A DNA stretch of 64,000 bases from Candidatus Yanofskybacteria bacterium RIFCSPHIGHO2_01_FULL_44_24 (GTDB taxonomy: Bacteria; Patescibacteriota; Minisyncoccia; 2-02-FULL-40-12; GWA2-44-9), in assembly GCA_001794215.1 (NCBI GenBank), contig MGJK01000012.1:4834-68833 (forward strand). Reading direction: 5' to 3'. This document shows, one piece after another, positions 27,782-63,823 of this stretch. The first letter of the stretch is position 1, and every line of letters starts with the position of its first letter. A program made the position numbers and the translations under genes. The notes beneath the pieces were generated by a model. It was not told the origin of the DNA, did not search any database, and saw only the letters and a list, made by a program, of their open reading frames with translations.

Positions 27782-27789
27782 TTTCGAGG

Positions 27790-41393: not shown

Positions 41394-41529
41394 TAATTAT
41401 GCACTGGAAAAAACCTACTCACAGTGCTAATGTTAAAAGTATAAAGAATTTTTAAGGAAATAGGGAGGATCGGCGTCATAAAATTAGATGACGGCTCGGT
41501 CCCCGAAATCCTATTTCTTGCGATTCATC

Positions 41530-44504: not shown

Positions 44505-44788
44505 ATCCCGTTAGAGCCAAAATGTACTACCATGTCTATGTATTACAAAGCACAAAGGATAGGCACTGGTATACAGGCTTTACGGTGGATTTACGGAAGC
44601 GCTTGAAAGAACACAATGAAGGAAAGTATGAGTCGTGGACAAAAGGCAGAGGACCATTTGAATTAATATATTATGAAGCGTCTAAAAACAAACAAGATGC
44701 TAAAAATAGAGAAAAATATCTTAAAACTGGCATGGGCAAGCGCTACCTCAAAAACAGGCTTAAGCGCTTCCTGGCTCTAACGGGATGA
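44501..44788 (+). CDS. GIY-YIG nuclease-domain protein (YhbQ/UPF0213-like)
   Basis: YYHVYVLQS...WYTGFTVDLRKRLKEHNEG is the GIY-YIG core in a ~95-aa protein. Overlaps both neighbours by 4 nt (ATGA). Confidence 0.65.
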   Translation: MNPVRAKMYYHVYVLQSTKDRHWYTGFTVDLRKRLKEHNEGKYESWTKGRGPFELIYYEASKNKQDAKNREKYLKTGMGKRYLKNRLKRFLALTG

Positions 44789-46497
44789 ATCCAAATCTTT
44801 CTAAAATCTGCGTACGGCCGGATGACAGCATCAAGGCGGTGCTGGATAAATTAGTTTTGCATAAGCCAGCCCAAACCAAGCTTCCCGGGGGGATTGTCTT
44901 GATTACCGAAAAGGATGGTAAGTTAGTCGGTATTGCTACTGATGGCGACATTCGAAGAGGACTTGCTGGAGGAGCAAAAATGGAAGATCGGATTTCCGCT
45001 CTGATGAACGGTAAGCCCTTTGTCGTTCAGGGTCCGACAACGAGCGAAGCGATACTCTCATTGGCTTCGGAGAAAATAAGAAAAGAAGGGCTCCATCGCG
45101 ACCGCTTAAGCAAAATTATCATCGTCGATAAAGATAAAAAGGTTTTAGATTTAGTCTCTTTTTATGATTTATGGAGGAAAAGCGATGTAAGGTTCAGGCA
45201 GATCGGAGTTGTCGGTTTGGGATATGTGGGCTTGACGCTCGGTGTTACCTTGGCCGATTTAGGGTTCAAGGTCATTGGTTTTGATATTGCTCCCGCGGTT
45301 AGGAAATCTTTGCAGAGAGGCAAGCCTCACTTCTACGAAAACGGCCTGGAAAGAATGCTTAAAGACAACTTAAGCAAGAATTTAAGGATTGCAAGTAATT
45401 TCAAAGGAGCCAATAATTGCGATGTATATTTTGTTTCTGTCGGCACTCCCTTAGACGGTAATAAAAAACCGAACCTCAAATATTTGCGTAATGCCTCAGA
45501 AAGGATCGGGAAGGTGCTGAAGGAGGGAGATTGCGTGATTTTACGCTCGACTGTTCCGGTCGGCGCGACCAGAAATTTTGTAGTGCCGATTTTAGAGAAA
45601 CTTTCCGGACTTAAGGCCGGTGACGGGTTTTTCGTCTCATTTGCCCCTGAAAGAACCATAGAGGGCAAGGCTCTTGAGGAATTGAGAAACCTTCCTCAGG
45701 TAGTTGGAGGAATTAATCGCGTAAGCGCCGATTTGACGGCGACCCTTTTCGGCCATATGACCCATTCGACGGTCTTGGTGGACTCTCTGGAAGAGGCAGA
45801 GACGGTTAAGCTTATCAACAATACTTATCGAGATGTTACCTTCTCCTTTGCCAACGAACTGTCCCTGATTTGCCATCGTTTGGGCATCGATACTCACCGG
45901 GTGATCGAGGCTGCTAATCGTGGATATGCAAGAAGCAATGTCCCTTTGCCTGGGCCAGGAGTCGGAGGAGCGTGCCTTGAAAAGGATCCATTTATTTTTA
46001 TCGAAAGCGCCAAAACCAAAGACTACGATCCGTTGCTGGTAAGGCACGCCCGATCGGTAAGCGACTTGATGCTCGATTTTATTACCCGGGAGATCAAAAG
46101 GTTCTTGGCCGGAAAACCAAATCTGCGCAACCCCAAGGTATTTATGATGGGCTTTGCGTTCAAGGGTCAGCCTGTTACCTCCGATATCAGGGGTTCGTAT
46201 TCGGTTAAGCTCGCAGATCAACTGAAGAAGAATATTCCGAATATCCATGTTTATGATCCTGCGGTTAGGCGGGAAGATATTCTGAATCATGGGCTCAGGT
46301 ATGCCGGCGACCTTAAAACAGGATTTACCGGAGCGGACGTGGTCGTGGTTATGAATAACAATCCGGCGTTTGGAGAAATAGACATAAGAAGCGCTCTCCA
46401 GTTGACTAATAAGCCGGCATTTCTATTTGATACTTGGGGAATATATAATAGAGAAGACGTGGCCAAAGTCAAAGGAGTGGAGTATAAGAGGTTGTAA
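44785..46497 (+). CDS. CBS-pair domain fused to UDP-glucose/GDP-mannose-dehydrogenase-family nucleotide-sugar dehydrogenase
   Basis: N-terminal ~150 aa with CBS-like repeats (LVGIATDGDIRRGL). Then the NAD-binding IGVVGLGYVGLTLGVTLADLGFKVIGFD and the UDPG/MGDP dehydrogenase central and C-terminal regions. Confidence 0.7.
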   Translation: MNPNLSKICVRPDDSIKAVLDKLVLHKPAQTKLPGGIVLITEKDGKLVGIATDGDIRRGLAGGAKMEDRISALMNGKPFVVQGPTTSEAILSLASEKIRKEGLHRDRLSKIIIVDKDKKVLDLVSFYDLWRKSDVRFRQIGVVGLGYVGLTLGVTLADLGFKVIGFDIAPAVRKSLQRGKPHFYENGLERMLKDNLSKNLRIASNFKGANNCDVYFVSVGTPLDGNKKPNLKYLRNASERIGKVLKEGDCVILRSTVPVGATRNFVVPILEKLSGLKAGDGFFVSFAPERTIEGKALEELRNLPQVVGGINRVSADLTATLFGHMTHSTVLVDSLEEAETVKLINNTYRDVTFSFANELSLICHRLGIDTHRVIEAANRGYARSNVPLPGPGVGGACLEKDPFIFIESAKTKDYDPLLVRHARSVSDLMLDFITREIKRFLAGKPNLRNPKVFMMGFAFKGQPVTSDIRGSYSVKLADQLKKNIPNIHVYDPAVRREDILNHGLRYAGDLKTGFTGADVVVVMNNNPAFGEIDIRSALQLTNKPAFLFDTWGIYNREDVAKVKGVEYKRL

Positions 46498-46979: not shown

Positions 46980-47702
46980 TTGTATAAACAGTATAAAGTA
47001 TTGGGTCTTATTCTTGCTCGCGGAGGTTCCAAGTCTATTCCTAAGAAAAATATTAAACTGCTTGGAGGCAAGCCTTTGCTTGCCCATACGGTTGAAAAAG
47101 CCAAAGCCGCCAAGTACATTGACCGGCTCATCCTTTCCACTGACGATAAAGAGATTGCCGATGTCGGCAGAAAATACGGAGCCGAAGTTCCTTTTACGCG
47201 ACCGGCAGAATTAGCCGAAGACAGCACGACCGACTATCCGGTTTTCGTTCATGCGGTTGAGTGGCTTGAAAAGAACGAGAATTGGAAGCCCGATTTTGTC
47301 GTTCACTTACGGCCGACTCATCCTTTTCGTAAAACTTCAGATATCGATAAAGCCGTAGAAATGCTCGCCGGTAATCCGGAAGCCGATTCTGTTTGGACCG
47401 TTGGGCTGCCTCCGGTGACGCCGTACAAGATGTTTTTGGCCGAAGAAGGCCAATTTATTAAACCAGTCGTTACTATCCCCGGAGTAGATGAGGCGTATAA
47501 TCTTCCTCGTCAGAAACTTCCCAAAGCCTACAACCACTATGGCCAAGTTGATGTTATGAGGCACAATACGTTGATGAAAAAGAAATCAATGTGTGGGAAA
47601 AATATCTTACCTCTTTTCCTTGAAGGAGAATTAGTTGATTTAGATACTCTATTCGATTGGGAGTTCGCGGAGTTTCTAATGAAAAAAGGGAAGATCAGAT
47701 AA
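46980..47702 (+). CDS. CMP-nonulosonic acid synthetase (acylneuraminate cytidylyltransferase NeuA/PseF/LegF family)
   Basis: LGLILARGGSKSIPKKNIKLLGGKPLLAHTVEKA...RLILSTDD is the classical N-terminal CMP-NeuAc/CMP-Kdo synthetase motif. TTG start. Short form without an esterase domain. Confidence 0.75.
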   Translation: MYKQYKVLGLILARGGSKSIPKKNIKLLGGKPLLAHTVEKAKAAKYIDRLILSTDDKEIADVGRKYGAEVPFTRPAELAEDSTTDYPVFVHAVEWLEKNENWKPDFVVHLRPTHPFRKTSDIDKAVEMLAGNPEADSVWTVGLPPVTPYKMFLAEEGQFIKPVVTIPGVDEAYNLPRQKLPKAYNHYGQVDVMRHNTLMKKKSMCGKNILPLFLEGELVDLDTLFDWEFAEFLMKKGKIR

Positions 47703-51232: not shown

Positions 51233-52345
51233 ATGAAGTTGAAAGATTTTGCCATCACCAATTTTGCTTATGGAAACGGGCCGTATCTAAGGACTACTGA
51301 ACTGGCTCTGTCTTTTAACGACAGGCTTGAAGAGGCCGGAGAAAAAAGATTCGGTATTATTGTTCCCTTGGTTTACGGTGATAAGCAAAAAAGGATTATG
51401 TCTGAAGATTTCGGGACCCGCATGGACGAAATAGTGCTTGATCCGGAGCTGGGAGCGATCCTGAAGGGCGTTTTCTACGATGGGGGCTCTTATTTGGAAT
51501 CTCTCGGGGGGTGGGTTGATAATTTTGAAAAAACTTCGGAATCAATACATAGGTATCTTAAAAATAAATATGGCGATAGCATTGTCGTGGAACTCAATCG
51601 TTCGCCCCGGGTCCGGTATGATATTGCGCCTTCGTATTTCACGTCTTTTGGTTTCATCGGGGAGATATTGGAGAGAATCGGAGAGATCAAGGGTTTGGCG
51701 ATTCCCGAGGGGCTTCTGAATGCCGGTATAAAAACCGCCGGATTGGCCGAGAGCGGCCATAGAATTCACTGCCTCGCTTATCCGGCAACATTCGCACATC
51801 TCAAAGACAGAAGTCCTCGTTGCAAAACCGAAGTCGAAGTTCCGCCCATCATGCTTCCGCCCGCAGTTAATAACGATAACGTCGAGAGAGGCATATACAT
51901 AACGGTAAGCGGAATTGCCGGATTAGGCGATCTTTATGCGAATGCCGGTAAATTCGGTGCGAAAATTTATACCAACAATCCCGATCTTATTCCCGGTAGT
52001 ATAAAGGCCTCGCCCCGCATTATCCCGAACAAAAACATTCTGTTTCAATTTGCCCGTTCCGGCTGGGGCTCAGTTTGGCTATCAATGATTTCCGGGACGC
52101 CTTTAGTCGTTCCCGCTTTTGACTTGAACGACGATCCGGAAATATATTTCAACAATAAGACGATAGAACAACTTGGCATCGGAATAATTTATCGGGGTCA
52201 GCCAATCGAGGAAATACTGGAAGGATGCGCGGAAGTGAAGAAAAACAGCGTTAAGGTTTGCGAGGAGGTCAAGAAACGCTGGGGAACCTTGGATGGCAAT
52301 CGGTATTGCGCCGGATTGTTTGTTAAGGACCTTCTCGGGAAGTAA
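51233..52345 (+). CDS. GT-B fold protein of the MurG/GT28/GT1 type (possibly PseG-like UDP-sugar hydrolase or glycosyltransferase)
   Basis: C-terminal ARSGWGSVWLSMISGTPLVVPAFDLNDDPEIYFNNKTIEQLGIGI matches the GT1/GT28 G-x-G...E...G-x-P.vv.P...DQ/D...NA...G.G signature. Confidence 0.5.
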   Translation: MKLKDFAITNFAYGNGPYLRTTELALSFNDRLEEAGEKRFGIIVPLVYGDKQKRIMSEDFGTRMDEIVLDPELGAILKGVFYDGGSYLESLGGWVDNFEKTSESIHRYLKNKYGDSIVVELNRSPRVRYDIAPSYFTSFGFIGEILERIGEIKGLAIPEGLLNAGIKTAGLAESGHRIHCLAYPATFAHLKDRSPRCKTEVEVPPIMLPPAVNNDNVERGIYITVSGIAGLGDLYANAGKFGAKIYTNNPDLIPGSIKASPRIIPNKNILFQFARSGWGSVWLSMISGTPLVVPAFDLNDDPEIYFNNKTIEQLGIGIIYRGQPIEEILEGCAEVKKNSVKVCEEVKKRWGTLDGNRYCAGLFVKDLLGK

Positions 52346-52411: not shown

Positions 52412-53221
52412 ATGGTGGCCAACGAATTATTTGAACAAAAGTGGAGCGAGGCTTTGAAGGGAAAAAAGGGAGAGGAATTCTCCATCTTCGTTCCCAAAGG
52501 AAAAAAACCGCAGACCCAGCGTCAGTTTAATTTATATTATTACTACCGCCTTATAGAGCGGCTGATTAAAGGCCGGAATTATAAGAATAGCATCGAATTC
52601 GGATGCGGCAGGGGAACCATCTCTCTTTATCTAAATCTCTACGGAGGTCTCGACGTTACTCTTTTCGATGTGGATCAGGGCGGGGTTGATTTAGCCCGGG
52701 CTAATTTTGACCTTCACAGAGCCAAGGGTTCTTTTTTTGTGGCCGATAGCGCCAAAGTTCCCATTGCTGATGACAGTTTCGATATTGTGGTGACCATGGG
52801 CTTGCTTGAGCACCTCACCAACTATATTGATAGTCTGAAGGAAATGTACAGAGTCCTTAAGCCGGGAGGAATCATGATATCGATGAATGTACCTAAGAAA
52901 ACATCCATTCAGATTTTGAACAAAATTTATAGAAAGATTCTCGGCGCAGTTAATAAGAAAATAGAGCTGAAGCTGGACTATTTCCGCATAGAAGAAACCC
53001 CGGCCGGGTTCCAGCGTACTGCCGAATTTGTGGGGTTCAAAAATTGTTCAATAATTCACGCCGATCCTCTTCCGCTTTTTACTCCCGTTGCAAAGCCCAT
53101 CGAAAGAACCTTGGCCGTTCTTTATAGAAATTTTATGGAGTTTCGCAAGCTATTTAAGTCTGAGCCGATGGAAACGGGAAGGAGATTGTCGAGGTGCCAT
53201 TTTCTTATAGGCTATAAGTAA
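52412..53221 (+). CDS. class I SAM-dependent methyltransferase
   Basis: Motif I IEFGCGRGTISLYL and post-I LKPGGIMIS. Confidence 0.7.
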   Translation: MVANELFEQKWSEALKGKKGEEFSIFVPKGKKPQTQRQFNLYYYYRLIERLIKGRNYKNSIEFGCGRGTISLYLNLYGGLDVTLFDVDQGGVDLARANFDLHRAKGSFFVADSAKVPIADDSFDIVVTMGLLEHLTNYIDSLKEMYRVLKPGGIMISMNVPKKTSIQILNKIYRKILGAVNKKIELKLDYFRIEETPAGFQRTAEFVGFKNCSIIHADPLPLFTPVAKPIERTLAVLYRNFMEFRKLFKSEPMETGRRLSRCHFLIGYK

Positions 53222-53320: not shown

Positions 53321-54475
53321 TTGATATCAAGCATGAATGGTTTTAATATTAAAACCCCTTATAGTAGTAGGAGGATAGGCGATAACGCCCCTACTTTTGT
53401 TATAGCCGAAATAGGTAAGAATTTTATCCAGACCAAAAAGGAGAAATCGGTTAAAGAATATCTGAGGAACGCCAAAGAACTGGTAATTTTAGCCAAAAAA
53501 TCCGGAGCTGATGCGGTTAAATTCCAAACCCATAATGTCGAGGATGAACAGCTCAATTTAAAAATAAGAGCCCCGCACTTTAAGGGCGATAGGTACGAAT
53601 GGGTTTCGAGGAATACCAAGGCTACACCGGTTAAAGAGTTTTGGATTCCGCTCAAAGAATTCTGCGATAAGGAAGGAATCACATTTTTCTCTACGCCCTG
53701 CAGTTTAGGAGCCGCAAAGATATTGTCCTCCCTGGATGTGGCTCTGTGGAAAGTCGCCTCTTGGGATATTTTGGATTTTGTTATGCTCGACCATATCAGA
53801 AAAAGCGGCAAACCGGTTATTATTTCCGGCGGAGCCAGTACGGCCGAAGAGATAGACAGATCAATCTCTTATATCCAGGAGAAAAACAAAAATCTTGCCT
53901 TGCTTCATTGTGTTTCCAAGTATCCCTGTCCACCCGAAGAGTTGAATTTGGGTACGATCGGTTTTTTTAAGAAAAGATACGATGTCCCCATAGGTTTTTC
54001 CGATCATTCTTTAGGCATCGAGTCTACCCTGGCCGCCGTTGCCCTGGGAGCTAAGGTGATAGAAAAACATTTCTCCCTGTCCCGAAGCTTATGGGGGGCC
54101 GATCATAGATTTTCCATGACTTCGGCATCGTTTGGTAAAATGGTTACAGAGATAAGGAAAATAGAGGCTAATCCCGGTGCGGCTCAGAAATATTTAAATC
54201 ATGAGAAAGTAAAGCCGAGCCTGAATTTTTCCGGCAAGGTTATCAGAGACGAAGAGAAAAGCATGAAGGCCGTATTTGCCAAGGCTCTTTTTGCCGGACG
54301 GGATATTCCGGCCGGACAAGTTATAAAATCTGATATGTTATACTCAATGAGACCCGGATTGGCGGTCGGAGGACTTCAGCCACTCCACTTCCATATGGTA
54401 GTCGGTCAAAAATCAGCAAAAGATTTGAAGAAGTTCGAACCGATAACGTTAGAAGTTGTAAAATCCGAAATCTGA
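53321..54475 (+). CDS. N-acetylneuraminate-synthase family enzyme (NeuB/PseI/LegI-like) with C-terminal SAF domain
   Basis: FVIAEIGKN...GADAVKFQTH...IGFSDHSLG is the NeuB TIM-barrel region. C-terminal antifreeze-like domain (ARDIPAGQVIKSDMLYSMRPGLAVGG). Confidence 0.8.
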   Translation: MISSMNGFNIKTPYSSRRIGDNAPTFVIAEIGKNFIQTKKEKSVKEYLRNAKELVILAKKSGADAVKFQTHNVEDEQLNLKIRAPHFKGDRYEWVSRNTKATPVKEFWIPLKEFCDKEGITFFSTPCSLGAAKILSSLDVALWKVASWDILDFVMLDHIRKSGKPVIISGGASTAEEIDRSISYIQEKNKNLALLHCVSKYPCPPEELNLGTIGFFKKRYDVPIGFSDHSLGIESTLAAVALGAKVIEKHFSLSRSLWGADHRFSMTSASFGKMVTEIRKIEANPGAAQKYLNHEKVKPSLNFSGKVIRDEEKSMKAVFAKALFAGRDIPAGQVIKSDMLYSMRPGLAVGGLQPLHFHMVVGQKSAKDLKKFEPITLEVVKSEI

Positions 54476-54608: not shown

Positions 54609-55922
54609 ATGAAGATCCTCATAAGTATCCCAAGTCCCGAATATTACAGGAACTATATTACTTCGCCGGCGCTTTCGGAAATAATCGAAAGCTGTTATTT
54701 TATTGTGCCCAAGAAAATGGCGGATAAGGATTTCGGAGTGCCTAAATCGAGGGTTGCGGTCTATGATTATCCTGCCGACAAAGAAGTTCTGCACAAACAT
54801 TTATTTCATATCAATACAGGAAAGTTTGAATCTCGAAGCACTTCCCTGAAGTTCAGATTTATGAGACTAAGCAAAAGGAGCCAGGTTCTCTATCGTATTC
54901 TTGGATTGCCGGTTATTTATGAACTGACGCGATTTTTCATCCTCTCCCGAGCGGACGATAGACGGTTATTCTCTGTAATTAAAAGCATTCAGCCGGATGT
55001 AATTTTAATGCCTTCAAGCGGGTACGAGGGGATTACTTTTGAAATTATAAAGACAGCCAAGAAGCAGGGGGTACCGACTTTGATGCTGGTAGATAACTGG
55101 GATAATTTAGTGAGCAAGACCATTTTTACCTATAAGCCTGATTTTCTTTCGGTCTGGGGACCGCAGGCGGTTAAAGATGCCGTTGAAATTCATGGAATAC
55201 CCAAAGAAAGGATCTTTCCGATCGGAACGCCGAGGTTTTTCAATTATTTCAAGAACAGATCAGAGTATCCGTCACCTTACCCCTTTAAGTATGCACTTTT
55301 TGCCGGAAATTCAACGGGTTTTGATGAGCTGTCTGCGCTTAAAAAACTCGAAGAATATATCGAGAAAAATAATTTAGATCTCAAGATCGTTTATCGGCCC
55401 CACCCAATGAGGCAGAAAAGGAAATGTCCGGATAATTTTGTTGAGAGCGAATTCAAACATGTTGTACTGGATCTCCAGGCCAAGGAATATTATAACCGGG
55501 AAAAATCCAAAACCCCTTCTGATCTTCCTGATCTGGATTATTATCCCCGGGCCTTGGCTAATATGGAGTTTATGATCTGTCCGTTATCAACCATGTTGAT
55601 TGAGTGTCTTCTTTTTGATAAGCCAGTTTTTGTTTTGGCTTATGATGACGGGATACATTTCGTAAATCCTAAGAACTTGTATAAATATTGCCGACACTTT
55701 GAGGGGATCGAATATCTTAGAAATCTCGAAATCATTCACGAGTTCGAAGATCTAACCAGGGTGTTTACGGTTGATTTTTCCAAGAAAAGAATGGAGAAAG
55801 AAATTCCTTTGAGTTATTATCTTTCAGAAAAAACACGGCACTATCCGCACCATGTGAAATTACTGGTTGAGGATATCAATGCAAAATTCAAAAATAACCT
55901 GCGGGTCGGCCCGCAGGAATGA
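54609..55922 (+). CDS. putative GT-B glycosyltransferase with HP motif (sialyltransferase / KpsC-KpsS Kdo-transferase-like)
   Basis: 437 aa. Rossmann-like N-domain (VILMPSSGYEGITFEIIKTAKKQGVPTLMLVDNWDN) and a C-domain with YRPHP (His-Pro motif as in CMP-sugar-dependent sialyl/Kdo transferases). Confidence 0.4.
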   Translation: MKILISIPSPEYYRNYITSPALSEIIESCYFIVPKKMADKDFGVPKSRVAVYDYPADKEVLHKHLFHINTGKFESRSTSLKFRFMRLSKRSQVLYRILGLPVIYELTRFFILSRADDRRLFSVIKSIQPDVILMPSSGYEGITFEIIKTAKKQGVPTLMLVDNWDNLVSKTIFTYKPDFLSVWGPQAVKDAVEIHGIPKERIFPIGTPRFFNYFKNRSEYPSPYPFKYALFAGNSTGFDELSALKKLEEYIEKNNLDLKIVYRPHPMRQKRKCPDNFVESEFKHVVLDLQAKEYYNREKSKTPSDLPDLDYYPRALANMEFMICPLSTMLIECLLFDKPVFVLAYDDGIHFVNPKNLYKYCRHFEGIEYLRNLEIIHEFEDLTRVFTVDFSKKRMEKEIPLSYYLSEKTRHYPHHVKLLVEDINAKFKNNLRVGPQE

Positions 55923-56009
55923 AAAATTATCGTAACCCGCAAAACATAGTTAGCTTTGCGAGTGTCATTAATTTTTAACTTTCATCTCTACGCTTTAATT
56001 TTCCGTACT
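55923..56009 (+). repeat. AT-rich intergenic hairpin element (family copy C, lacking left arm)
   Basis: gaaaaattatcgtaa + hairpin cccgcaaaa-catagttagc-tttgcgag + aatttttaactttcatctctacgctttaatttt, ending at ATG 56010. Confidence 0.55.
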
Positions 56010-57221
56010 ATGAATCCGCAACTTCTTCAAAAGTCAGATAACAACGAGAATGTCTTTAGAGTTACGCTACCTTACGACTTCCTTATGCCGAATATCAACC
56101 ATGACGAGCCGGCTTTAAAAAGGAAGGTAATTTTCTGGGGGACGTGTTTCGGACAACTGCCGAAAGATCTGGATATCGAGCGCTACGTCACGATGGTTAA
56201 TAAATGTCTGGATTATGTTCGGCAAGAATGTCGCGGTTTCGAGCTTTATTACAAACCGCATCCTGCCGAAAAAGACGAGTTCAAGCTGCTAAATTTAGAA
56301 TCTTTTACGTTGCTTAGCGATCCTGCCGTTGGAGAGGTTTTTTTGTGGAAAAATTGGGATCAGATAGCTTATTCGTTCTCAGTTATGTCCAATGCCACCA
56401 TATCAGCTTATGATTTCGGGATAAATTCCTATGTTTTTTACAAACTTTTTGATTCGGTTTTGGGTAGAGCTTCTTTTGAGTCTTGTGAATGGTTTTTTCA
56501 AAGTATGCCAGAAGATTTTTTTATTAAAGATTTAGGCCAGGGACTTAAAGGAAACAGGTCTCTTCTCGGAAAGGACGATTTCTTAGAGAATAAAATGAAA
56601 AATATGTTAAACAACAACAAAGAGGGCAGAATCTGGTTTATTATAGTTGAACCAGCGCTGATTACTGCCATGGTATCGCTTGTAAGCTTGATTAAACAAC
56701 TGGATCCGGCCAGAAAAACTGGACTGATTATTTCGAAGCAGAAACGGTGGAGAGCGGTAAGCATCGATGAATTCAAAAAATATTTCGATATAATCGCGGT
56801 ATTTCCAAAAATTTCCTATACTCTTAAGCTGAGTCGATTATTCGAGGCCATAAAAACAGCCCTTCAAATTAGAAGATTTGATATTAAGCCGGAAGACATC
56901 TTTATGGGGCTATCTCATAATTCTTTGGTCGAAAACTGCTTTATTTCTTATTTTTCGGAAAACAAAAAAATCGCTTTTTTTTCGGATATTTATTTCGATA
57001 TGATGTATAATTTAAGGTATGCCACCTTTTTTGCTAATAGTGATTTTAAAACAAAATTGGCGAGCAAACTTTGGGGCTTGGTTTTCGAGCCGTTGTTGGG
57101 ATTGTACCGGACCATTTATCTTCAATATGGTGACGGTCGGGTTTTGAACATAACCAGATATCGAAAGCCGATGGATAGAATATACGATGAAATATATTTG
57201 GCTCATCTGCAAAGAGGATAG
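56010..57221 (+). CDS. hypothetical protein with HP motif (possible second CMP-sugar-dependent transferase)
   Basis: YYKPHPAEKDEFK parallels YRPHPMRQKRK of the preceding protein, with similar size and architecture. The ORF finder start at 55956 lies inside the repeat; ATG (MNPQLLQK) is at 56010. Confidence 0.35.
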   Translation: MNPQLLQKSDNNENVFRVTLPYDFLMPNINHDEPALKRKVIFWGTCFGQLPKDLDIERYVTMVNKCLDYVRQECRGFELYYKPHPAEKDEFKLLNLESFTLLSDPAVGEVFLWKNWDQIAYSFSVMSNATISAYDFGINSYVFYKLFDSVLGRASFESCEWFFQSMPEDFFIKDLGQGLKGNRSLLGKDDFLENKMKNMLNNNKEGRIWFIIVEPALITAMVSLVSLIKQLDPARKTGLIISKQKRWRAVSIDEFKKYFDIIAVFPKISYTLKLSRLFEAIKTALQIRRFDIKPEDIFMGLSHNSLVENCFISYFSENKKIAFFSDIYFDMMYNLRYATFFANSDFKTKLASKLWGLVFEPLLGLYRTIYLQYGDGRVLNITRYRKPMDRIYDEIYLAHLQRG

Positions 57222-57243: not shown

Positions 57244-58212
57244 ATGTATACGAGCTATACAAACAAAATCGCCCACGGAATAATGTTTCATCACTTTCAC
57301 GGACGGAAGCATTATAAAGGGCAAGGTTCTTTATCGAGGGAGGGTTTCGAAAGTATTTTGAACTTTATAGGAATTGACCGGATACTTAGTCCGGCCGAAT
57401 GGCTAAGGCGGCTTGATAGCAATCGTTTACAGCCCTCGGATATCTGCATCACATTCGACGATTCTTTAATGTGCCAGTTTGATGTTGCTTTGCCAATTCT
57501 GGAGAGGTATAAGCTTAAGGCTTTTTGGTTTATTTATTCCAATGTCTTTGAAGGGCAGATAAACAAACTCGAGGTTTATCGAGCCTTTCGTTTAAAGAAT
57601 TTTAAGCATGTTGACGAGTTTTATGATGTTTTTTTAGAGAAGGTTTTTGTCTCTGAATTCGGAGAAAAAGCTAAAAAAGCAATAAGCCCAAGCGATTTAC
57701 GGCGCTACCAAAAAACCTTTCCGTTTTATTCACCGAACGACATCAAGTTCAGGTTTATCAGGGACAGGGTATTGCAACCAAGCGACTACGAGTATATAAT
57801 GGACGGCATAATAAAAGATCGTGGTGTCAAAATCGGAGCATTAACCCGAAACTTGTGGATGTCGAACGAGAATTTAAAATACTTAAGTGACAAAGGCCAT
57901 GGTATCGGACTTCATTCTTATTCTCATCCGACCAGGTTAGCCGGACTGGCATATAAAGATCAGCGGATGGAGTACGGTAAAAATTACGAGCACATAGAAA
58001 GCATTACGAGCAGACCGCCATTGGTCGCGGCTCATCCGGTAAATTCTTATGATCTGAACACCTTCCGAATTCTTGAAAAGTTAAATATTCGTTGCGGCTT
58101 TAGATCCAATATGTTTCCAGGAGAGATAACGGGGAAAATAAACGGCCATAAATACGAAATGGCCAGGGAAGACAGCGCCAATATTATTAGGATGATGGAA
58201 AAAAGTAAATGA
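57244..58212 (+). CDS. polysaccharide deacetylase (NodB/CE4-like)
   Basis: ICITFDDSLMCQFDVALPILERYKLKAFWFIYSN (TFDD motif) and a later HSYSHP His-rich motif. Confidence 0.65.
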   Translation: MYTSYTNKIAHGIMFHHFHGRKHYKGQGSLSREGFESILNFIGIDRILSPAEWLRRLDSNRLQPSDICITFDDSLMCQFDVALPILERYKLKAFWFIYSNVFEGQINKLEVYRAFRLKNFKHVDEFYDVFLEKVFVSEFGEKAKKAISPSDLRRYQKTFPFYSPNDIKFRFIRDRVLQPSDYEYIMDGIIKDRGVKIGALTRNLWMSNENLKYLSDKGHGIGLHSYSHPTRLAGLAYKDQRMEYGKNYEHIESITSRPPLVAAHPVNSYDLNTFRILEKLNIRCGFRSNMFPGEITGKINGHKYEMAREDSANIIRMMEKSK

Positions 58213-58231: not shown

Positions 58232-59365
58232 ATGAAAATAAACAGTCATAATGAATGGGATAAGCTGAAAGAAATAATAGTCGGGCGGGCAGAAGGCCAT
58301 GCCCCGCTTGTTTTTCCGCACGGCTTAGTTTCTCCCGAGTTATTGGAAAAATCTGTCAAATTGGCTCGCCAAGCTTATCCCCAGTGGCTAGTTGATGAAA
58401 TTAGCGAGGACTTGGAGGGGCTTTGTGATGTTTTGAAATCTTTCGGCGCCAAGGTTTATAGGCCCGACCTTTCTCATAATAATAAATTGTTTACAACTCC
58501 ATACTTTTCTGCGGTAGGCGACCATGTTTATAATATGAGAGATCTTCACTTGGTAGTCGGCGATAATGTCATTGAGTCGCCTTCGCAGGAGCAACACAGG
58601 TATTTTGAGGCCATGGGCCTGTATCCTATTTGGTATGAGTACTTCAAAGCAGGGGGATTTAAATGGATCGCCGGTCCTAAGCCGCGCATTCCCGGAAATC
58701 ATATGGAAGTCTATACCGTTCAAGGTAAATCTCAGTACGATGATGGCCAGAAATATACTCGGCTTACCGAAGAGGAGATCTTATTCGAGGCCGCTAATAC
58801 TTTGAGAATGGGCCGGGATCTTTTATACCTTGTTTCAAGATCCGGCAATTACCTTGGCGCCAAATGGCTTCAGAGCGTTTTAGGGAGCGATTATCGGGTC
58901 CATACGACCAGTGAAATTTACCGTTCAAGCCATATAGATTCTACCGCCATGGCATTGCGTCCCGGTTTGGTTATGCTCAATGCCACTCGAGTTGATTCAG
59001 AAACGTGTCCTGCGGTTTTTAAAAAGTGGGATAAAATCTATTTTTCTGACATTGTTCCCACGCCGCAAAGAACACTCGATATTCATGAGAAAGTCAGGAA
59101 ACCGGTTCATATTGAATTAGAAAAATTGGGAGTAAAATCAGGCCTGGGATCTATCAGTTCTCCGTGGATAGGCATGAACTTTTTGTCCATAGACCCCAAT
59201 CACGTAGTAGTTGACAAGATTCAGGTGCCTTTGATGAAAATTCTTGAACAGCACGGTATCACGCCGGTACCCATATCTTTCAGACACTCTTACTTTATGG
59301 GCGGTATTCATTGCAGTACGCTCGATACGGTTAGAGAAAGCAAACTTGAAAGTTATGGCGATTAA
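58232..59365 (+). CDS. amidinotransferase-superfamily enzyme (glycine/inosamine amidinotransferase-like)
   Basis: C-terminus FMGGIHCSTLDTVRESKLESYGD closely resembles the catalytic-Cys C-terminus of AGAT/StrB1 amidinotransferases (GGFHC.T.D.RRRG.L.SY.D). Length ~377 aa is appropriate. Confidence 0.6.
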   Translation: MKINSHNEWDKLKEIIVGRAEGHAPLVFPHGLVSPELLEKSVKLARQAYPQWLVDEISEDLEGLCDVLKSFGAKVYRPDLSHNNKLFTTPYFSAVGDHVYNMRDLHLVVGDNVIESPSQEQHRYFEAMGLYPIWYEYFKAGGFKWIAGPKPRIPGNHMEVYTVQGKSQYDDGQKYTRLTEEEILFEAANTLRMGRDLLYLVSRSGNYLGAKWLQSVLGSDYRVHTTSEIYRSSHIDSTAMALRPGLVMLNATRVDSETCPAVFKKWDKIYFSDIVPTPQRTLDIHEKVRKPVHIELEKLGVKSGLGSISSPWIGMNFLSIDPNHVVVDKIQVPLMKILEQHGITPVPISFRHSYFMGGIHCSTLDTVRESKLESYGD

Positions 59366-59380
59366 ATTCAATATAAAAAT

Positions 59381-60586
59381 ATGAGTACAAAATACAAAAA
59401 AATTAAACGAGTTGAGGCGGCTACCCAGAAAACATTTAGGGAAGAAATCCCCTCTATTTATTTTTCTGATAAATCCGAAAAAGAATTTCAAAGATATTCG
59501 AATAACGCGTTGTACACCTATCGAGATTTATTTAAATTTCCACCGAAAATGTTTTCCAATGCGGATCTTATTGATTTTGGCGGGGGTACGGGAGAAAATA
59601 CCGTCACATTAGCCAGATGGGGTGCGAATTGCACGCTTGTAGACATGAACGACAAATCGTTGGCCATAGCCAGACAGGTGTTTAAGCGTTATGCCAAAAC
59701 AGGCAAACATAAATTTCAGCTCTCATCAATATTTGATTATAAATCATCTGCTAAGTATGACATTGTCCATTGTAGGGGAGTTCTAAGCCATACTGCCGAT
59801 AAAGAAGGGGCGTTTAAAAAAATTGCAGGATTTCTTAAGCCCGGCGGATTTCTGATTTTCGGAGATCCCAATAAGGCCGGAGGGTTTCAAAATATGCTTC
59901 AGCGTTTCGCCGTCTATTATCATTCCAAATCAAAGGATGATATGGTTCGGGTAAGTGAAAAACTATTCAAAGAAGATATTGATCGAAGCCAGTCATTTAT
60001 CCCTCGGACTCGAAGGTCAATAATATTTGACCGGTGGGTCATTCAAAACCAAGACGATCCATCCGTCGACGAGGTTATGAGCTGGCTGGGGGCTAATGGT
60101 TTGACCTTGTATTCAGGTTATCCGCCGTTCTCCTTCCCTTTGATCGGAGATTCCGTTCATCACCAACCCAAATTCGACATTTCGCAGGTTCAGGGGTTAG
60201 CTACTATTGCCGAAACTACCTGGTTATTGCAAAGGTACGGCGATCAGGAGAATATCAAGGACTTAAAAGAAGGTTGCTCGGAATACGCCAAGAGGTTTTC
60301 TGATTTAACCAGCTATGTAGCAAATTTCAATTCTAAGTCTGCGCTTGATAAGGCTATGTTTAATAAGTTGATTGACGCCGTCGATGCTTCTTTTAGCAAC
60401 GTATCGGTTTTAAATCCGCTGAAGGTTCGATTGTCAGAATTTACTATTGAAGCAAAACGGTTTGTACATTTAGTCCAGGCGTCTAATCTGGATGAAATCA
60501 GGAAATATATACTCTCCTGCAAGCACCTGTTTAAGGGTGCCTGTGGCGTTCGGCACGTAGATTTCATTGCTTATAAGAACGAATAG
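59381..60586 (+). CDS. class I SAM-dependent methyltransferase
   Basis: Motif I LIDFGGGTGENTVTLARWGA and post-I LKPGGFLIFG. Confidence 0.7.
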   Translation: MSTKYKKIKRVEAATQKTFREEIPSIYFSDKSEKEFQRYSNNALYTYRDLFKFPPKMFSNADLIDFGGGTGENTVTLARWGANCTLVDMNDKSLAIARQVFKRYAKTGKHKFQLSSIFDYKSSAKYDIVHCRGVLSHTADKEGAFKKIAGFLKPGGFLIFGDPNKAGGFQNMLQRFAVYYHSKSKDDMVRVSEKLFKEDIDRSQSFIPRTRRSIIFDRWVIQNQDDPSVDEVMSWLGANGLTLYSGYPPFSFPLIGDSVHHQPKFDISQVQGLATIAETTWLLQRYGDQENIKDLKEGCSEYAKRFSDLTSYVANFNSKSALDKAMFNKLIDAVDASFSNVSVLNPLKVRLSEFTIEAKRFVHLVQASNLDEIRKYILSCKHLFKGACGVRHVDFIAYKNE

Positions 60587-60591
60587 ATATC

Positions 60592-60609
60592 CACGGCCTA
60601 ACGGCCGTG
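60592..60609 (+). terminator. hairpin (terminator-like) at start of GC-rich intergenic region
   Basis: cacggcc taa cggccgtg is a perfect 7-bp stem, 6 nt after the stop. No U-tract. Confidence 0.4.
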
Positions 60610-60881
60610 ATACCCCATGTCTTCGATTTATTCTCGGGATTTGCTTTGGAAAAGAAATTCGGGGTCTATATAATTGCTTCCTCCGCCAACTGGGCGGATC
60701 CGGGTCTGACTTCATCCTCGTGCTAACGCCCGAGGTTTTCGTCGGATCAATTATAAAAAGATGAACCTATGGCGCCCCATAGGGAGCGTACTTCATATTT
60801 TTTTACCATCTATGGCGTCCTATGTCAATATAGCCATAAGCTTAAATATATTGTACATTAGTTTAGTTAATTTAACTCACG

Positions 60882-61589
60882 ATGCCATATAGATCTCAAA
60901 AGATCTTAGTGATTATTCCGGCGCGGGGAGGATCAAAAAGGTTACCCGGTAAGAATATAAAGAAGATCGGCGGAAAGCCGATGATTGCCCATGCGATCGA
61001 AGCGGCCAGGAAATCAAAATATGTCGACAGGGTAGTCGTTTCGACTGATGATAAGGCAATAGCCAGTATTGCGAAAAAATATAAAGCCGAAGTGCCATTT
61101 GTGCGTCCGGCCGAACTTGCCTCTGATACGGCGCCAACCCTCCCTGTTTTACAGCACGTTGTTAAATATGTTGAGGAAAATGATAAATTCAAGCCGGATT
61201 TAGTTGTTCTGATTCAGCCGACAAATCCGCTTGTCAGATCTGAAGATGTGGACGGAACTATAGAAACTTTATTCAAAACCAACACTAATTCCTGCTTTTC
61301 TGTTACTGAAATAAGTCAGAGGCCGGAATGGATGTATAGGATGGATAATAATCCCGCAGAACTTTTTCTAAAAGAAGAATCTGGCCCGACGAAAAGATCA
61401 CAGGAACTTCCCCGACTGGCTATCATAAATGGCACGGTTTATGTAATGAAATACGAAACTCTTATGACAAAAAATAAAATACGGGATGGCAATACGAGTA
61501 TTTATGTGATGCCCCGGGAAAGATCGGTGGATATTGATGATAAGTTTGATTTCGAGTTGGCAAAGTTTTTGTTCCAGAGAAATAAATGA
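60882..61589 (+). CDS. CMP-nonulosonic acid synthetase (NeuA/PseF/LegF family), second copy
   Basis: ILVIIPARGGSKRLPGKNIKKIGGKPMIAHAIEAA...RVVVSTDD. Paralog of 46980. Confidence 0.8.
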   Translation: MPYRSQKILVIIPARGGSKRLPGKNIKKIGGKPMIAHAIEAARKSKYVDRVVVSTDDKAIASIAKKYKAEVPFVRPAELASDTAPTLPVLQHVVKYVEENDKFKPDLVVLIQPTNPLVRSEDVDGTIETLFKTNTNSCFSVTEISQRPEWMYRMDNNPAELFLKEESGPTKRSQELPRLAIINGTVYVMKYETLMTKNKIRDGNTSIYVMPRERSVDIDDKFDFELAKFLFQRNK

Positions 61590-62626
61590 AAAAAATTATA
61601 AAAATTGGAGATAAATTTATTGGAAAAGGTTATCCGGTTTTTGTGATGGCTGAGGCCGGAGTCAACCATAACGGCAAATTAGATCTGGCGCTTAAACTTG
61701 TCGATGCGGCGGCCGATGCCGGAGCCGATGCGATAAAATTCCAAACATTCAGGGCGGAAGAGGTTGTTATAGCCGAGGGTGAGATGGCCGAATATCAAAA
61801 GAAAAATACGGGCAAGAATCAAAGTCAGCTCGCAATGCTTAAGAAATTGGAATTTCAGGAAGAATGGTATCCCAAAGTTATAAAAAGGTGTAAAGAAAGA
61901 GGCATAATATTCCTATCAACTCCTCATGGCGGTTTTGCTTCCGTCGATCTTCTTAATAAGTTTAAAGTCCCAGCCCTTAAATTCGGTTCAGGAGATTTAA
62001 ATAATCTGCCGGTATTAGAATACGCAGCTCGTCTGAATAAGCCGATAATTTTGAGTACGGGGATGGGGAATATGGAAGAAATTAAAGAAGCCGTTAAAAC
62101 CATAAGCAAAAAGGGGAACGATAATCTGATAGTTTTACACTGTACTACGAATTACCCCTGCCCTTTGGAAGAGGTGAATCTAAATGCCATGAAAACCATA
62201 GAAAAAGAAGTTGGTGTTATGACCGGATATTCTGATCATACGGCCGGGTATGATACGGCGGTCATGGCTGTGGTTATGGGTGCACCGCTTATAGAGAAGC
62301 ATCTTACTCTTGATAAAAAAATGAATGGGCCGGACCATAAAGCATCGGCGGATCCGAAAGAATTCAAAGAGATGGTGATGAAAATAAGAAATGTCGGTAT
62401 TGTCATGGGTCAAGGTAAAAAAGAGCCAACTGTATCCGAACTCAAAATGTTGCCATTAGTCAGAAAGAGCGTGGTGACACTGTCTGATATTAAGAAAGGG
62501 GATCTGTTCACCGCTCTTAACATAGGGATCAAAAGACCTGGAACCGGTCTTGCACCTAAATATCATACAGAACTGATCGGCTCAAAATCTAAGAAAGATA
62601 TTAAAGCCGGCACCCTCCTTGACTAA
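61586..62626 (+). CDS. N-acetylneuraminate-synthase family enzyme (NeuB/LegI/PseI-like), second copy
   Basis: VFVMAEAGVNHNGKLDLALKLVDAAADAGADAIKFQTF...GYSDHTAG and a C-terminal SAF domain. Overlaps the upstream gene by 4 nt. Confidence 0.85.
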   Translation: MKKIIKIGDKFIGKGYPVFVMAEAGVNHNGKLDLALKLVDAAADAGADAIKFQTFRAEEVVIAEGEMAEYQKKNTGKNQSQLAMLKKLEFQEEWYPKVIKRCKERGIIFLSTPHGGFASVDLLNKFKVPALKFGSGDLNNLPVLEYAARLNKPIILSTGMGNMEEIKEAVKTISKKGNDNLIVLHCTTNYPCPLEEVNLNAMKTIEKEVGVMTGYSDHTAGYDTAVMAVVMGAPLIEKHLTLDKKMNGPDHKASADPKEFKEMVMKIRNVGIVMGQGKKEPTVSELKMLPLVRKSVVTLSDIKKGDLFTALNIGIKRPGTGLAPKYHTELIGSKSKKDIKAGTLLD

Positions 62627-62680: not shown

Positions 62681-63823
62681 ATGAAAAAAATAGCATATAT
62701 TTCAGGTACTCGAGCGGATTTCGGGTTGATGACACCCGTTCTATGGGCTATTGAAAAGAGCTCAAGATTGAATCTTCAAGTTTACGCTACGGGCATCCAT
62801 CTGATGAAAGATTTTGGTTTTACCTTTAATGAAGTCAGGAAAGAATTTCCTAGAGTGAAAAAAATAGAGGCAACCTTTAAATCGGACGACAGAATTGGAA
62901 CTGCCGGTTTCACCGGGGAGTTTATGGGCAGATTTGTGGAGACTCTGGCTGAAGACAAGCCTGATTTTCTCTTGGTTCTTGGCGATAGGATCGAGATGCT
63001 GTGCGCCGCTGTTGCCTGTCTTTACCTCAGGATCCCGGTCGGCCAACTTCACGGAGGAGATAGGAGCAGTACCGTTGATGAATTGGCTCGCCATGCAATC
63101 ACTAAGCTTTCGCATATTCACTTTCCGGCGACCGTAGATGCTGGTGAAAGAATAAAGAAGATGGGTGAGGATGATTGGCGGGTACATGTTGTCGGCGCCC
63201 CGGCTTTAGACATTATTTTGAACAAGCAGTTGCCTACGCGGGAGGAACTATTTAAAAAACTCGGGCTGGATCCGAAAAACAACGTCATTTTAGTCACCCA
63301 ACATCCGGTGAGCGAGGAAATAGAAGATGCCGGATTCCAAATGGAGGAGACTCTATCGGCGGTGAAGACATTCAATCTGCCCGTGGTTGTGACTTACCCT
63401 CATGCCGATGCCGGCGGAAGAAAGATTATCGAGGTTATAGATCGAGAAAAGGGCAATTCTCAATTCCGAATTTTTCCTAGCCTGACTTATAAAGATTTCT
63501 TAGCTCTTGAAAGAGAGTGTGCGGTTTGGGTCGGAAATTCCAGCGGGACGATGATCGAGTCATCTTCTTTTCAAACCCCCGTAGTTGAGGTGGGTGAGCG
63601 TCAGAAGGATAGGGAACATGGCGATAATTTGATAAAGGTCGGATATGACCGCAGAGCGATATCGGCTGCGATAGATAAGTCGCTGAACGACAGAGAATAC
63701 CTGCTCAAATTAACCAAGATAAAGAATCCTTGGGGCGACGGAAAGACCGGTCCGAGAGTCGTTCAAGTGCTCGAAGATTTAAAAATCGATTCCAGATTGT
63801 TGAATAAGCAGATCAGCTATTAG
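62681..63823 (+). CDS. UDP-N-acetylglucosamine 2-epimerase (hydrolysing), NeuC/LegG-like
   Basis: ISGTRADFG...LVLGDRIEMLCAAVACLYLRIPVGQLHGGD is the NeuC pattern (GDR.E and HGG motifs). Confidence 0.8.
   Translation: MKKIAYISGTRADFGLMTPVLWAIEKSSRLNLQVYATGIHLMKDFGFTFNEVRKEFPRVKKIEATFKSDDRIGTAGFTGEFMGRFVETLAEDKPDFLLVLGDRIEMLCAAVACLYLRIPVGQLHGGDRSSTVDELARHAITKLSHIHFPATVDAGERIKKMGEDDWRVHVVGAPALDIILNKQLPTREELFKKLGLDPKNNVILVTQHPVSEEIEDAGFQMEETLSAVKTFNLPVVVTYPHADAGGRKIIEVIDREKGNSQFRIFPSLTYKDFLALERECAVWVGNSSGTMIESSSFQTPVVEVGERQKDREHGDNLIKVGYDRRAISAAIDKSLNDREYLLKLTKIKNPWGDGKTGPRVVQVLEDLKIDSRLLNKQISY

Follow-up and report, generated by a model that had tools for sequence, protein, structure and literature searches.

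A StrB1-like amidinotransferase at the centre of a putative three-gene tailoring cassette in legionaminic-acid-type nonulosonic acid operons of uncultured bacteria

Nonulosonic acids (NulOs) are key determinants of the cell surface, bearing on charge, recognition by phages and predators, immune evasion and flagellar assembly, and these properties are set by their N-substituents, such as acetyl, acetamidino, formyl and hydroxybutyryl groups. In Campylobacter jejuni, an N-acetyl group is converted into an acetamidino (Am) group and then into an N-methyl-Am group through ptmG and ptmH (bioRxiv 10.64898/2026.04.20.719630), and the Am modification of Campylobacter appears to take place on the sugar activated with cytidine monophosphate (CMP) (PMC5378307). 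In Candidatus Kuenenia stuttgartiensis, CMP-NulOs with a free or a formylated amine have been detected and linked to a legionaminic-acid (Leg)-type cluster with an embedded deacetylase and formyltransferase, and the parallel to ptmG/ptmH has been noted (bioRxiv 10.64898/2026.04.20.719630). The present analysis deals with a gene of Candidatus Yanofskybacteria bacterium RIFCSPHIGHO2_01_FULL_44_24, here called AmT, which is found between a deacetylase and a methyltransferase gene in a stretch of 64,000 nucleotides (contig MGJK01000012.1, positions 4,834 to 68,833; hereafter the window, to whose first letter coordinates refer unless another locus is named). AmT is very probably a functional enzyme of the amidinotransferase family and is likely to be functionally tied to NulO biosynthesis. 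With slightly better than even chances, the three genes together form a cassette that turns an N-acetyl group of a Leg-type NulO into a free amine, then into a guanidino group with the amidino moiety of L-arginine, and finally into an N-methylguanidino group, the donor, the acceptor, the order of the steps, the position and the product all being predicted. The three genes are:

57244..58212, + strand: CE4/NodB-type deacetylase (here NodB), 322 amino acids, cassette partner (Pfam Polysacc_deac_1, 1.8e-14).
58232..59365, + strand: StrB1-like amidinotransferase (AmT), 377 amino acids, Cys-His-Glu triad (ATG-to-stop reading frame; phmmer against the PDB; AlphaFold 2; Foldseek).
59381..60586, + strand: MT401, a class I S-adenosylmethionine (SAM) methyltransferase of 401 amino acids with a helical C-terminal domain, cassette partner (Pfam).

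The AmT open reading frame (ORF) exactly fills 58232..59365 on the + strand, starting with ATG and encoding 377 amino acids that end in ...SYFMGGIHCSTLDTVRESKLESYGD. An earlier note on this DNA had taken the C-terminus for the catalytic-cysteine tail of amidinotransferases, which is borne out far beyond chance by the alignment, column for column, with GGFHCATLDVRRTGALETY (GGFHCATLD region) of StrB1, the scyllo-inosamine-4-phosphate amidinotransferase of streptomycin biosynthesis, and with the tail of L-arginine:glycine amidinotransferase (AGAT). Searching all PDB chains with phmmer returned StrB1 (1bwd; 2.4e-68, 41% identity), SxtG (6u1r; 4.6e-51), human AGAT (1jdw and relatives; about 1e-47) and HsvA (5wpi; 7.9e-41), the significant matches being amidinotransferases only. 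The AlphaFold 2 model, built on 36 homologues, reached a predicted local distance difference test score of 86 and a predicted template modelling (TM) score of 0.87, and its comparison with the PDB by Foldseek placed StrB1 first (E 1e-33, TM 0.79/0.85), followed by AGAT, SxtG and HsvA (3e-30 to 6e-29), the top seven all being amidinotransferases. Arginine deiminase, ArgZ/AgrE and DDAH start only at 2e-11, about 20 orders of magnitude weaker, so that the best matches are those anticipated by the earlier note and not agmatine deiminase or DDAH. Nor is AmT a member of the arginine deiminase, agmatine deiminase or DDAH families by profile: the only Pfam match, to ADI, covers the C-terminal 55 residues and scores 14 bits against a cut-off of 22.8, the only NCBIfam match, to DDAH, scores 11 bits against 300, and the structural neighbours lie elsewhere. 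These sub-threshold matches were dropped as classifiers, the sequence and fold searches of the PDB being decisive for an amidinotransferase. A search of profile libraries, as advised in the earlier note, would by itself have left the family call unconfirmed. A PP-loop (SGGKDS) ATP-pyrophosphatase fold was not found in AmT, for which Foldseek gives the amidinotransferase fold. When 1.84 billion representatives were searched exhaustively with HMMER, 1,260 relatives emerged, of which 127 reached E<=1e-30. The AmT clade has a mean column identity of 71% across phyla, and database names for the family are "hypothetical protein" at NCBI and, by automatic annotation at JGI, glycine/inosamine-phosphate amidinotransferase. 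An identical protein (100% identity) is on record from a groundwater metagenome-assembled genome of Candidatus Yanofskybacteria (Parcubacteria).

Regarding the active site, 119 close homologues were aligned with StrB1, and AGAT numbering was taken from pairwise alignments. The mapped features, from N- to C-terminus, are:

58787..58789, + strand: Glu186, codon GAG, aligned with the triad Asp of StrB1 (D179) and AGAT (D254), in FEAAN instead of FDAAN/FDAAD.
58931..58939, + strand: His234-Ile-Asp236 ("HID"), by alignment the catalytic His (StrB1 H227, AGAT H303) and the guanidino-binding Asp (StrB1 D229, AGAT D305).
59057..59155, + strand: insert of 33 residues relative to StrB1, amino acids 276-308, with a predicted helix at 279-298 (alignment, AlphaFold 2), marking the NulO-linked subfamily.
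59312..59314, + strand: Cys361, codon TGC, the predicted catalytic nucleophile in the GGIHC motif, equivalent to StrB1 C332 and AGAT C407 (alignment; 119/119).

Eight residues are invariant in the 119 homologues, namely D104, R123, E186, H234, D236, R253, S310 and C361. Among the further equivalences, D104 corresponds to AGAT D170 and StrB1 D108, R123 to StrB1 R127, R253 to R322 and R246, and S310 to S355 and S280 of AGAT and StrB1, respectively, so that all the positions by which AGAT binds its donor L-arginine (Asp170, Asp305, Arg322 and Ser355) are matched in AmT by Asp104, Asp236, Arg253 and Ser310. In AGAT structures, the guanidino group is bound by two Asp residues and the alpha-carboxylate of arginine or ornithine by an Arg/Ser pair; the AmT counterparts of these, like those of the nucleophile and the general base, are invariant. 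The Asp-His-Cys triad expected in the earlier note is found with regard to Cys361, His234 and an acidic partner, but this partner is Glu186 and not Asp. Of 110 full-length diverse representatives, 94 have Asp as the triad carboxylate and 14 have Glu, the Glu cases being scattered; Glu at this position is therefore a recurrent, tolerated alternative with no loss of the triad, and the change was dropped both as a refutation and as a clade-specific signature. The "NPMH" flap sequence that precedes the catalytic His in AGAT-type enzymes is missing from AmT, as it is from StrB1, where its absence accompanies an open site for a bulky acceptor. Judged by its residues, AmT thus combines all the sequence-testable features of an amidinotransferase (EC 2.1.4.x, pentein superfamily), with Glu replacing Asp.

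The two partners are recognizable by family. NodB matches Polysacc_deac_1 with 54.2 bits (cut-off 23.1) and retains the CE4 motifs TFDD, with the base and metal Asp, and H(S/T)xxH, with the metal His pair, its D72, D73, H224 and H228 being invariant in 36 orthologues; it is presumed to be cytoplasmic, since no signal peptide is evident from reading its N-terminus. Its family numbers 1,370 database matches at E<=1e-10, with generic names only. The MT401 family, with 416 homologues at E<=1e-5, likewise bears generic names, none of its members being characterised, and has an invariant SAM motif DxGxGTG. A marginal match to the NodS profile of Pfam (24.2 bits, cut-off 24) was found for MT401, and AlphaFold 2 modelling followed by Foldseek gave generic class I neighbours only, i.e., the O-methyltransferase UbiG and the N-methyltransferases PKMT, NodS and BpumL. 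Neither NodB nor MT401 has a close characterised relative in PDB and NCBIfam searches, and no specific similarity of MT401 to GAMT, the methyltransferase of creatine synthesis, appeared in sequence or fold searches.

The trio lies directly upstream of the genes for NulO synthesis, with spacers of 19 nt between NodB and AmT and of 15 nt between AmT and MT401. The earlier note had correctly located AmT between a NodB deacetylase and NeuA/NeuB/NeuC, overlooking MT401 between AmT and NeuA. The genes that follow the trio are:

60882..61589, + strand: CMP-NulO synthetase, NeuA/LegF-like (Pfam CTP_transf_3, 3.6e-34; NCBIfam PseF-like, 191 bits, under cut-off).
61586..62626, + strand: NulO synthase, NeuB/LegI-like, here NeuB 2 (Pfam NeuB, 1.6e-93; NCBIfam NeuB_NnaB, 432.9 bits, cut-off 399.65).
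62681..63823, + strand: hydrolysing 2-epimerase of nucleoside diphosphate (NDP)-N-acetylhexosamine (HexNAc), NeuC/LegG-like (Pfam Epimerase_2, 6e-76; NCBIfam NeuC_NnaA, 373.6 bits, cut-off 235.9).

NeuB 2 and NeuC thus exceed the curated equivalog cut-offs of NCBIfam for NeuB/NnaB and hydrolysing NeuC/NnaA. Past the window end, the source contig continues with Glyphos_transf (opposite strand), a hexapeptide acetyltransferase, a DegT aminotransferase, a Polysacc_synt_2 4,6-dehydratase, Wzx and a Wzy_C/TPR protein. The DegT protein and the dehydratase score under the NCBIfam equivalog cut-offs for PseB, PseC and LegC, no PseG-like gene is present in the window or in the contig genes past its end, and no homologue of a PP-loop amidotransferase, HisH or HisF was found within the 64 kb. 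From its gene content, the operon is predicted to encode a complete NeuC-dependent, legionaminic-acid-type pathway to a 5,7-di-N-acetyl NulO, its own N-acetyltransferase included. Since such an operon already makes the di-N-acetyl sugar, a free acceptor amine would have to be created, for which a deacetylase would be needed.

Some observations concern the transcription of the trio. In the 296-nt gap between MT401 and NeuA (60587..60881), a GC-rich hairpin with an 8-bp stem follows directly after the MT401 stop codon (60591..60610) and a promoter-like site occurs at 60646..60674, both as consensus matches only; from these, the trio may be a transcription unit apart from NeuABC. Around the trio, promoter-like sites show no excess (8 observed, 10.2 expected from shuffling), and terminator-like sites number 11 against a shuffle expectation of 3.9 but lie mostly on the minus strand or inside coding sequence.

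For comparative genomics, a single genome was scanned for each GTDB species, which yielded 44 loci encoding AmT relatives. They come from Parcubacteria, Saccharibacteria, Rokubacteria, Binatia, Omnitrophota, Pirellulales, Planctomycetales, Acidobacteriota, Leptospiraceae, Latescibacterota, Nitrospira and several Proteobacteria, as well as from nine Pelagibacterales (SAR11) and two Prochlorococcus single-cell genomes. Neighbours were assessed both by tblastn with the window proteins and by unbiased all-against-all clustering of 816 ORFs, with a concordant picture. A CE4 deacetylase lies within 10 kb in 33-36 of the 44 loci, nearly always directly adjoining AmT, and MT401 directly adjoins it in 25; where MT401 is lacking, another class I methyltransferase (cluster c16) is often found beside AmT. 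Within the same distance, the NulO core genes are NeuA (25-27 loci), NeuB (26), NeuC (20-21), the Polysacc_synt_2 4,6-dehydratase (25) and DegT (23), and the Ptm-like genes are a GFO/IDH/MocA oxidoreductase (PtmF-like; 18), a short-chain dehydrogenase/reductase (PtmA-like; 15) and a CBS-nucleotidyltransferase (PtmE-like; 10). The order is either NodB-AmT-MT or MT-AmT-NodB, AmT always being central. Among the 39 Glu-type loci, 34 have NodB next to AmT and 29 have a methyltransferase there, either MT401 or the c16 class I enzyme; NulO or amino-sugar genes lie within 10 kb in 32, with NeuC in 19 and a PseG-like gene in one. On two further long contigs (L048 and L049), NodB-AmT stands mid-operon with overlapping stop and start codons, between a PglD-like acetyltransferase and a PtmE-like gene. 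As a negative control, a Bacilli MAG (metagenome-assembled genome) locus with 31% identity (L042) has no NodB, methyltransferase or NulO-pathway families nearby.

Two loci belong to an Asp-type subclade with FDAAN and 44-49% identity (L038:9518-10690 and L039:9956-11149). There, AmT ends pseudaminic-acid clusters of the order PseB-PseC-PseF-PseG(-PseH)-PseI-AmT without NodB; L039 has no obvious PseH acetyltransferase in its cluster, which hints at direct amidination of a 4-amino intermediate. In one Acidobacteriota locus, an ornithine/aspartate carbamoyltransferase gene (L018:11355-12254; OTCace 2.6e-56) lies directly downstream of AmT; it is a single case, which would fit a reuse of the ornithine that amidino transfer from arginine sets free.

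Taken across these loci, AmT appears to be the core of a conserved three-gene tailoring cassette tied to Leg-type NulO operons in many phyla. This recurrent NodB-AmT-methyltransferase arrangement lends strong weight to the earlier note's proposal that an amino sugar or NulO is tailored by AmT, the product itself being a prediction. The note's further attribution of acetamidino groups to another type of enzyme agrees with eight loci in which the canonical acetamidino genes (PP-loop "SGGKDS" amidotransferase and HisH/HisF) stand alongside AmT as separate genes. Because both coexist there, AmT would add a different chemistry and be no stand-in for the acetamidino system, and the cassette as a non-orthologous replacement of that system was rejected.

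As to mechanism, NodB would strip one N-acetyl group from a pathway intermediate and so free an amine, most likely at the ring N5-acetyl and at the stage of the free or CMP-activated NulO. The N5 site is favoured by analogy with the N-acetylglucosamine-type substrates of CE4 enzymes (a ring acetamido group beside a ring hydroxyl) and with Leg5Am7Ac, and the CMP-NulO stage by the analogous N-modifications of Campylobacter and Ca. Kuenenia seen at the CMP-sugar level. Cys361 would then attack the guanidino carbon of L-arginine, ornithine leaving and an S-amidino (isothiouronium) enzyme being formed with the assistance of His234 and Glu186, and the sugar amine would attack this intermediate to give the guanidino-NulO. 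Finally, a nitrogen of the guanidino group (or of the amine) would be methylated by the methyltransferase. The resulting surface sugar would carry a permanent positive charge and be zwitterionic overall, and its CMP-activated form would serve for the transfer onto the glycan. A guanidino product is judged more likely than an acetamidino one, from which it would differ by NH2 in place of CH3. Computed masses are 334.1488 for the guanidino NulO, C12H22N4O7, and 334.1376 for Leg5Ac7Ac, a difference of +0.0112 Da (34 ppm), 348.1645 for the N-methyl form, C13H24N4O7, and 292.1271 for the free-amine intermediate, C11H20N2O7; with so small a shift between guanidino and acetyl forms, such sugars would pass as ordinary Leg5Ac7Ac unless mass accuracy is high.

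With regard to the known systems, StrB1 is the best match of AmT in both sequence and fold and has the same constellation of Cys, His and Asp/Arg/Ser; it uses L-arginine to put a guanidino group on a sugar-like amine. AmT differs from it by Glu186 for Asp179, by the helical insert of 33 residues (amino acids 276-308) and by its setting in a NulO glycan operon with a deacetylase and a methyltransferase instead of an aminoglycoside cluster. The AGAT and GAMT pair of creatine synthesis resembles the cassette in that the same ping-pong amidino transfer is expected and the logic of amidination followed by methylation is echoed by the adjacent MT401. However, identity to AGAT is about 31% and MT401 is not GAMT-like, and glycine is very unlikely as the acceptor of AmT because of the deacetylase partner and the sugar operon. 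The PP-loop amidotransferases PtmG, PseA and WbpG, with or without HisH/HisF, act with PtmH on Leg and pseudaminic acid at the same pathway position, where an N-acetyl group becomes a cationic amidine-type group and is then N-methylated, and the ptmG and ptmH genes sit inside a Leg cluster as the cassette does. Yet their fold is unrelated, and they are ATP-dependent and keep the acetyl carbons, whereas deacetylation and amidino transfer from arginine are predicted here. The Ca. Kuenenia module is alike in cluster architecture: a deacetylase in a Leg-type operon bares the NulO amine and a second enzyme re-decorates it, this enzyme being a formyltransferase there and an amidinotransferase in the cassette. 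In architecture, the cassette is a hybrid of these two systems, with a Kuenenia-like deacetylase, a methyltransferase in the role of PtmH and an amidinotransferase as a new middle step. In the Nod-factor system, a CE4 N-deacetylase (NodB) also makes a sugar amine that is methylated by a class I SAM N-methyltransferase (NodS), but its substrate is a chitooligosaccharide, no amidinotransferase is involved, and MT401 is no more similar to NodS than to many class I methyltransferases.

Several points weigh against the guanidino-NulO reading. The triad carboxylate of AmT is Glu, whereas the four solved amidinotransferases have Asp, and the ADI and DDAH hydrolases of the superfamily use Cys-His-Glu. 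CE4 enzymes include O-deacetylases, hence NodB need not generate an amine, and the fold of MT401 fits N- and O-methyltransferases alike. In seven of the 39 Glu-type loci, genes for NulOs or amino sugars are missing within 10 kb, and in the Acidobacteriota loci L018 and L025 the Glu-type gene is accompanied by neither NodB nor NulO genes. Mirror-tree correlations with AmT (r = 0.31 with NodB, 0.48 with MT401 and, for comparison, 0.44 with NeuB and 0.52 with NeuA) are non-discriminating with respect to co-evolution of the cassette, and every carrier found is an uncultured MAG or single-cell amplified genome. To our knowledge, no guanidino-NulO has been described from any organism. Full-text literature searches linked no amidinotransferase to nonulosonic, legionaminic or pseudaminic acids (those with "neuB" gave false matches to author surnames), and those combining guanidino with nonulosonic acid returned no natural bacterial sugar, only synthetic sialosides, dendritic-cell sialic acid and a metabolite library of Chinese hamster ovary cells.

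Among the alternatives, the one that survives best, though rather unlikely, is that the same chemistry takes place on an early nucleotide-hexosamine, either guanosine diphosphate (GDP)-glucosamine (GlcN) from a PtmE-like enzyme or a DegT-made NDP-4-amino-4,6-dideoxy-HexNAc, and that the guanidino group, at N5 or N7, is carried through NeuC and NeuB. It would suit StrB1, whose natural acceptor is a phosphorylated aminocyclitol, as well as the Asp-type clusters L038 and L039 that lack NodB; in L039, where no PseH is obvious, the 4-amine would be left free. AmT also directly adjoins a PtmE-like CBS-nucleotidyltransferase gene in L048, L049, L014, L020 and L023, the GDP-GlcN produced by PtmE having a free 2-amine (PMC5378307). 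However, an early acceptor does not account for the deacetylase as the most regular partner (34/39), it would require NeuC- and NeuB-type enzymes to take a cationic guanidino for an acetamido group, and the analogous N-modifications of Campylobacter and Ca. Kuenenia appear at the CMP-NulO level.

That AmT acts on a non-sugar acceptor, i.e., an amino acid or polyamine later joined to the glycan or a free small molecule in a creatine-like AGAT/GAMT logic, with an indirect link to NulOs, is improbable. Characterised relatives do act on glycine (AGAT), polyamines (HsvA, 5wpi) and toxin precursors (SxtG), creatine synthesis likewise pairs an amidinotransferase with a subsequent methyltransferase, and L018 and L025 have the gene without nearby sugar genes. 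Against this stand the tight, order-flexible linkage to the CE4 gene and the mid-operon placement in Leg clusters over more than eight phyla, both hard to explain with such an acceptor, the lack of specific GAMT similarity in MT401, and the sugar-like aminocyclitol on which the closest solved relative, StrB1, acts.

It is very improbable that AmT is a hydrolase or another non-transferase, such as a deiminase or amidinohydrolase working on arginine or on an amidino or guanidino sugar. The Glu in the triad and the weak C-terminal ADI and DDAH matches would accord with it, but these matches are far under the curated cut-offs, similarity to the transferases in sequence and fold is about 20 orders of magnitude greater, Glu occurs sporadically throughout the amidinotransferase family, and the Arg253 and Ser310 that bind the carboxylate of ornithine or arginine are retained. 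As for AmT being a mobile passenger of hypervariable glycan islands with no NulO role, or an inactive remnant, such islands are mosaics and the pairwise-identity correlations of AmT with its neighbours are modest, but the idea is scarcely credible given the invariant catalytic residues, the strong conservation of the clade, the same partners in dozens of loci despite rearranged order and a gene spacing that fits translational coupling.

Apart from the predicted Leg-type pathway downstream of the cassette, further genes are found upstream of it in the window:

46980..47702: second NeuA-like cytidylyltransferase.
51233..52345: ORF of 370 amino acids without a Pfam match even at E 0.1.
52412..53221: class I methyltransferase.
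53321..54475: NeuB paralogue 1 (NCBIfam NeuB, 250.9 bits, well under the 399.65 cut-off).
54609..55922: ORF of 437 amino acids, likewise without a Pfam match.
55956..57221: ORF of 421 amino acids, likewise without a Pfam match.

NeuB paralogue 1 and the second NeuA-like gene suggest that this locus also encodes a further, divergent ulosonic-acid pathway. A homologue of the 421-amino-acid ORF directly follows MT401 in a related Yanofskybacteria locus (L001), and the ORF may encode a cassette-associated protein, e.g., a NulO transferase. Nearly the entire window is devoted to glycan biosynthesis, with at least five methyltransferases, several DegT aminotransferases and dehydratases and two NulO synthases, which is a large investment for a small, reduced genome from the CPR (Candidate Phyla Radiation); its genes are mostly on the + strand, and cumulative GC skew climbs steadily. 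A 570-amino-acid fusion at 44785..46497 joins an N-terminal CBS domain to a complete UDP-glucose/GDP-mannose-type dehydrogenase, an architecture unusual for a sugar-nucleotide dehydrogenase. Tandem ABC exporter genes (604 and 596 amino acids) at 25967..29580 on the minus strand are about 40-44% identical to the ABC proteins of cluster c14 that recur beside the cassette in SAR11 and other loci. The ORFs 41488..43131 (547 amino acids, N-terminal nucleotidyltransferase domain) and 43043..44125 (360 amino acids, weak GatZ/KbaZ-like match) overlap by 89 nt on the same strand, which could reflect a miscalled start codon or be genuine.

Amidinotransferases as a family are known; their recruitment with two dedicated partner families into a NulO context is new and predicts a new sugar modification. 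It is possible, at somewhat less than even chances, that abundant uncultured bacteria (CPR, Saccharibacteria, SAR11, Prochlorococcus, Acidobacteria and Planctomycetes) carry guanidino- or N-methylguanidino-NulOs by means of this cassette, with the Asp-type sister clade doing likewise on pseudaminic acid. If so, a guanidino substituent would constitute a new chemical class of NulO, permanently protonated and neutralising the carboxylate of the sugar, and would be installed by a family of enzymes whose known roles so far lie in antibiotic, toxin and creatine pathways. Sialic-acid analogues with a guanidino group, a motif found otherwise in zanamivir, a synthetic neuraminidase inhibitor, would also become accessible by enzymatic synthesis. 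The three large families that are now hypothetical or generically named, namely the AmT clade, the CE4 family and the MT401 family, would gain a functional annotation. Being located in the hypervariable surface-glycan islands of very abundant and least tractable bacteria such as SAR11, Prochlorococcus and CPR, the cassette provides a handle on their surface chemistry.

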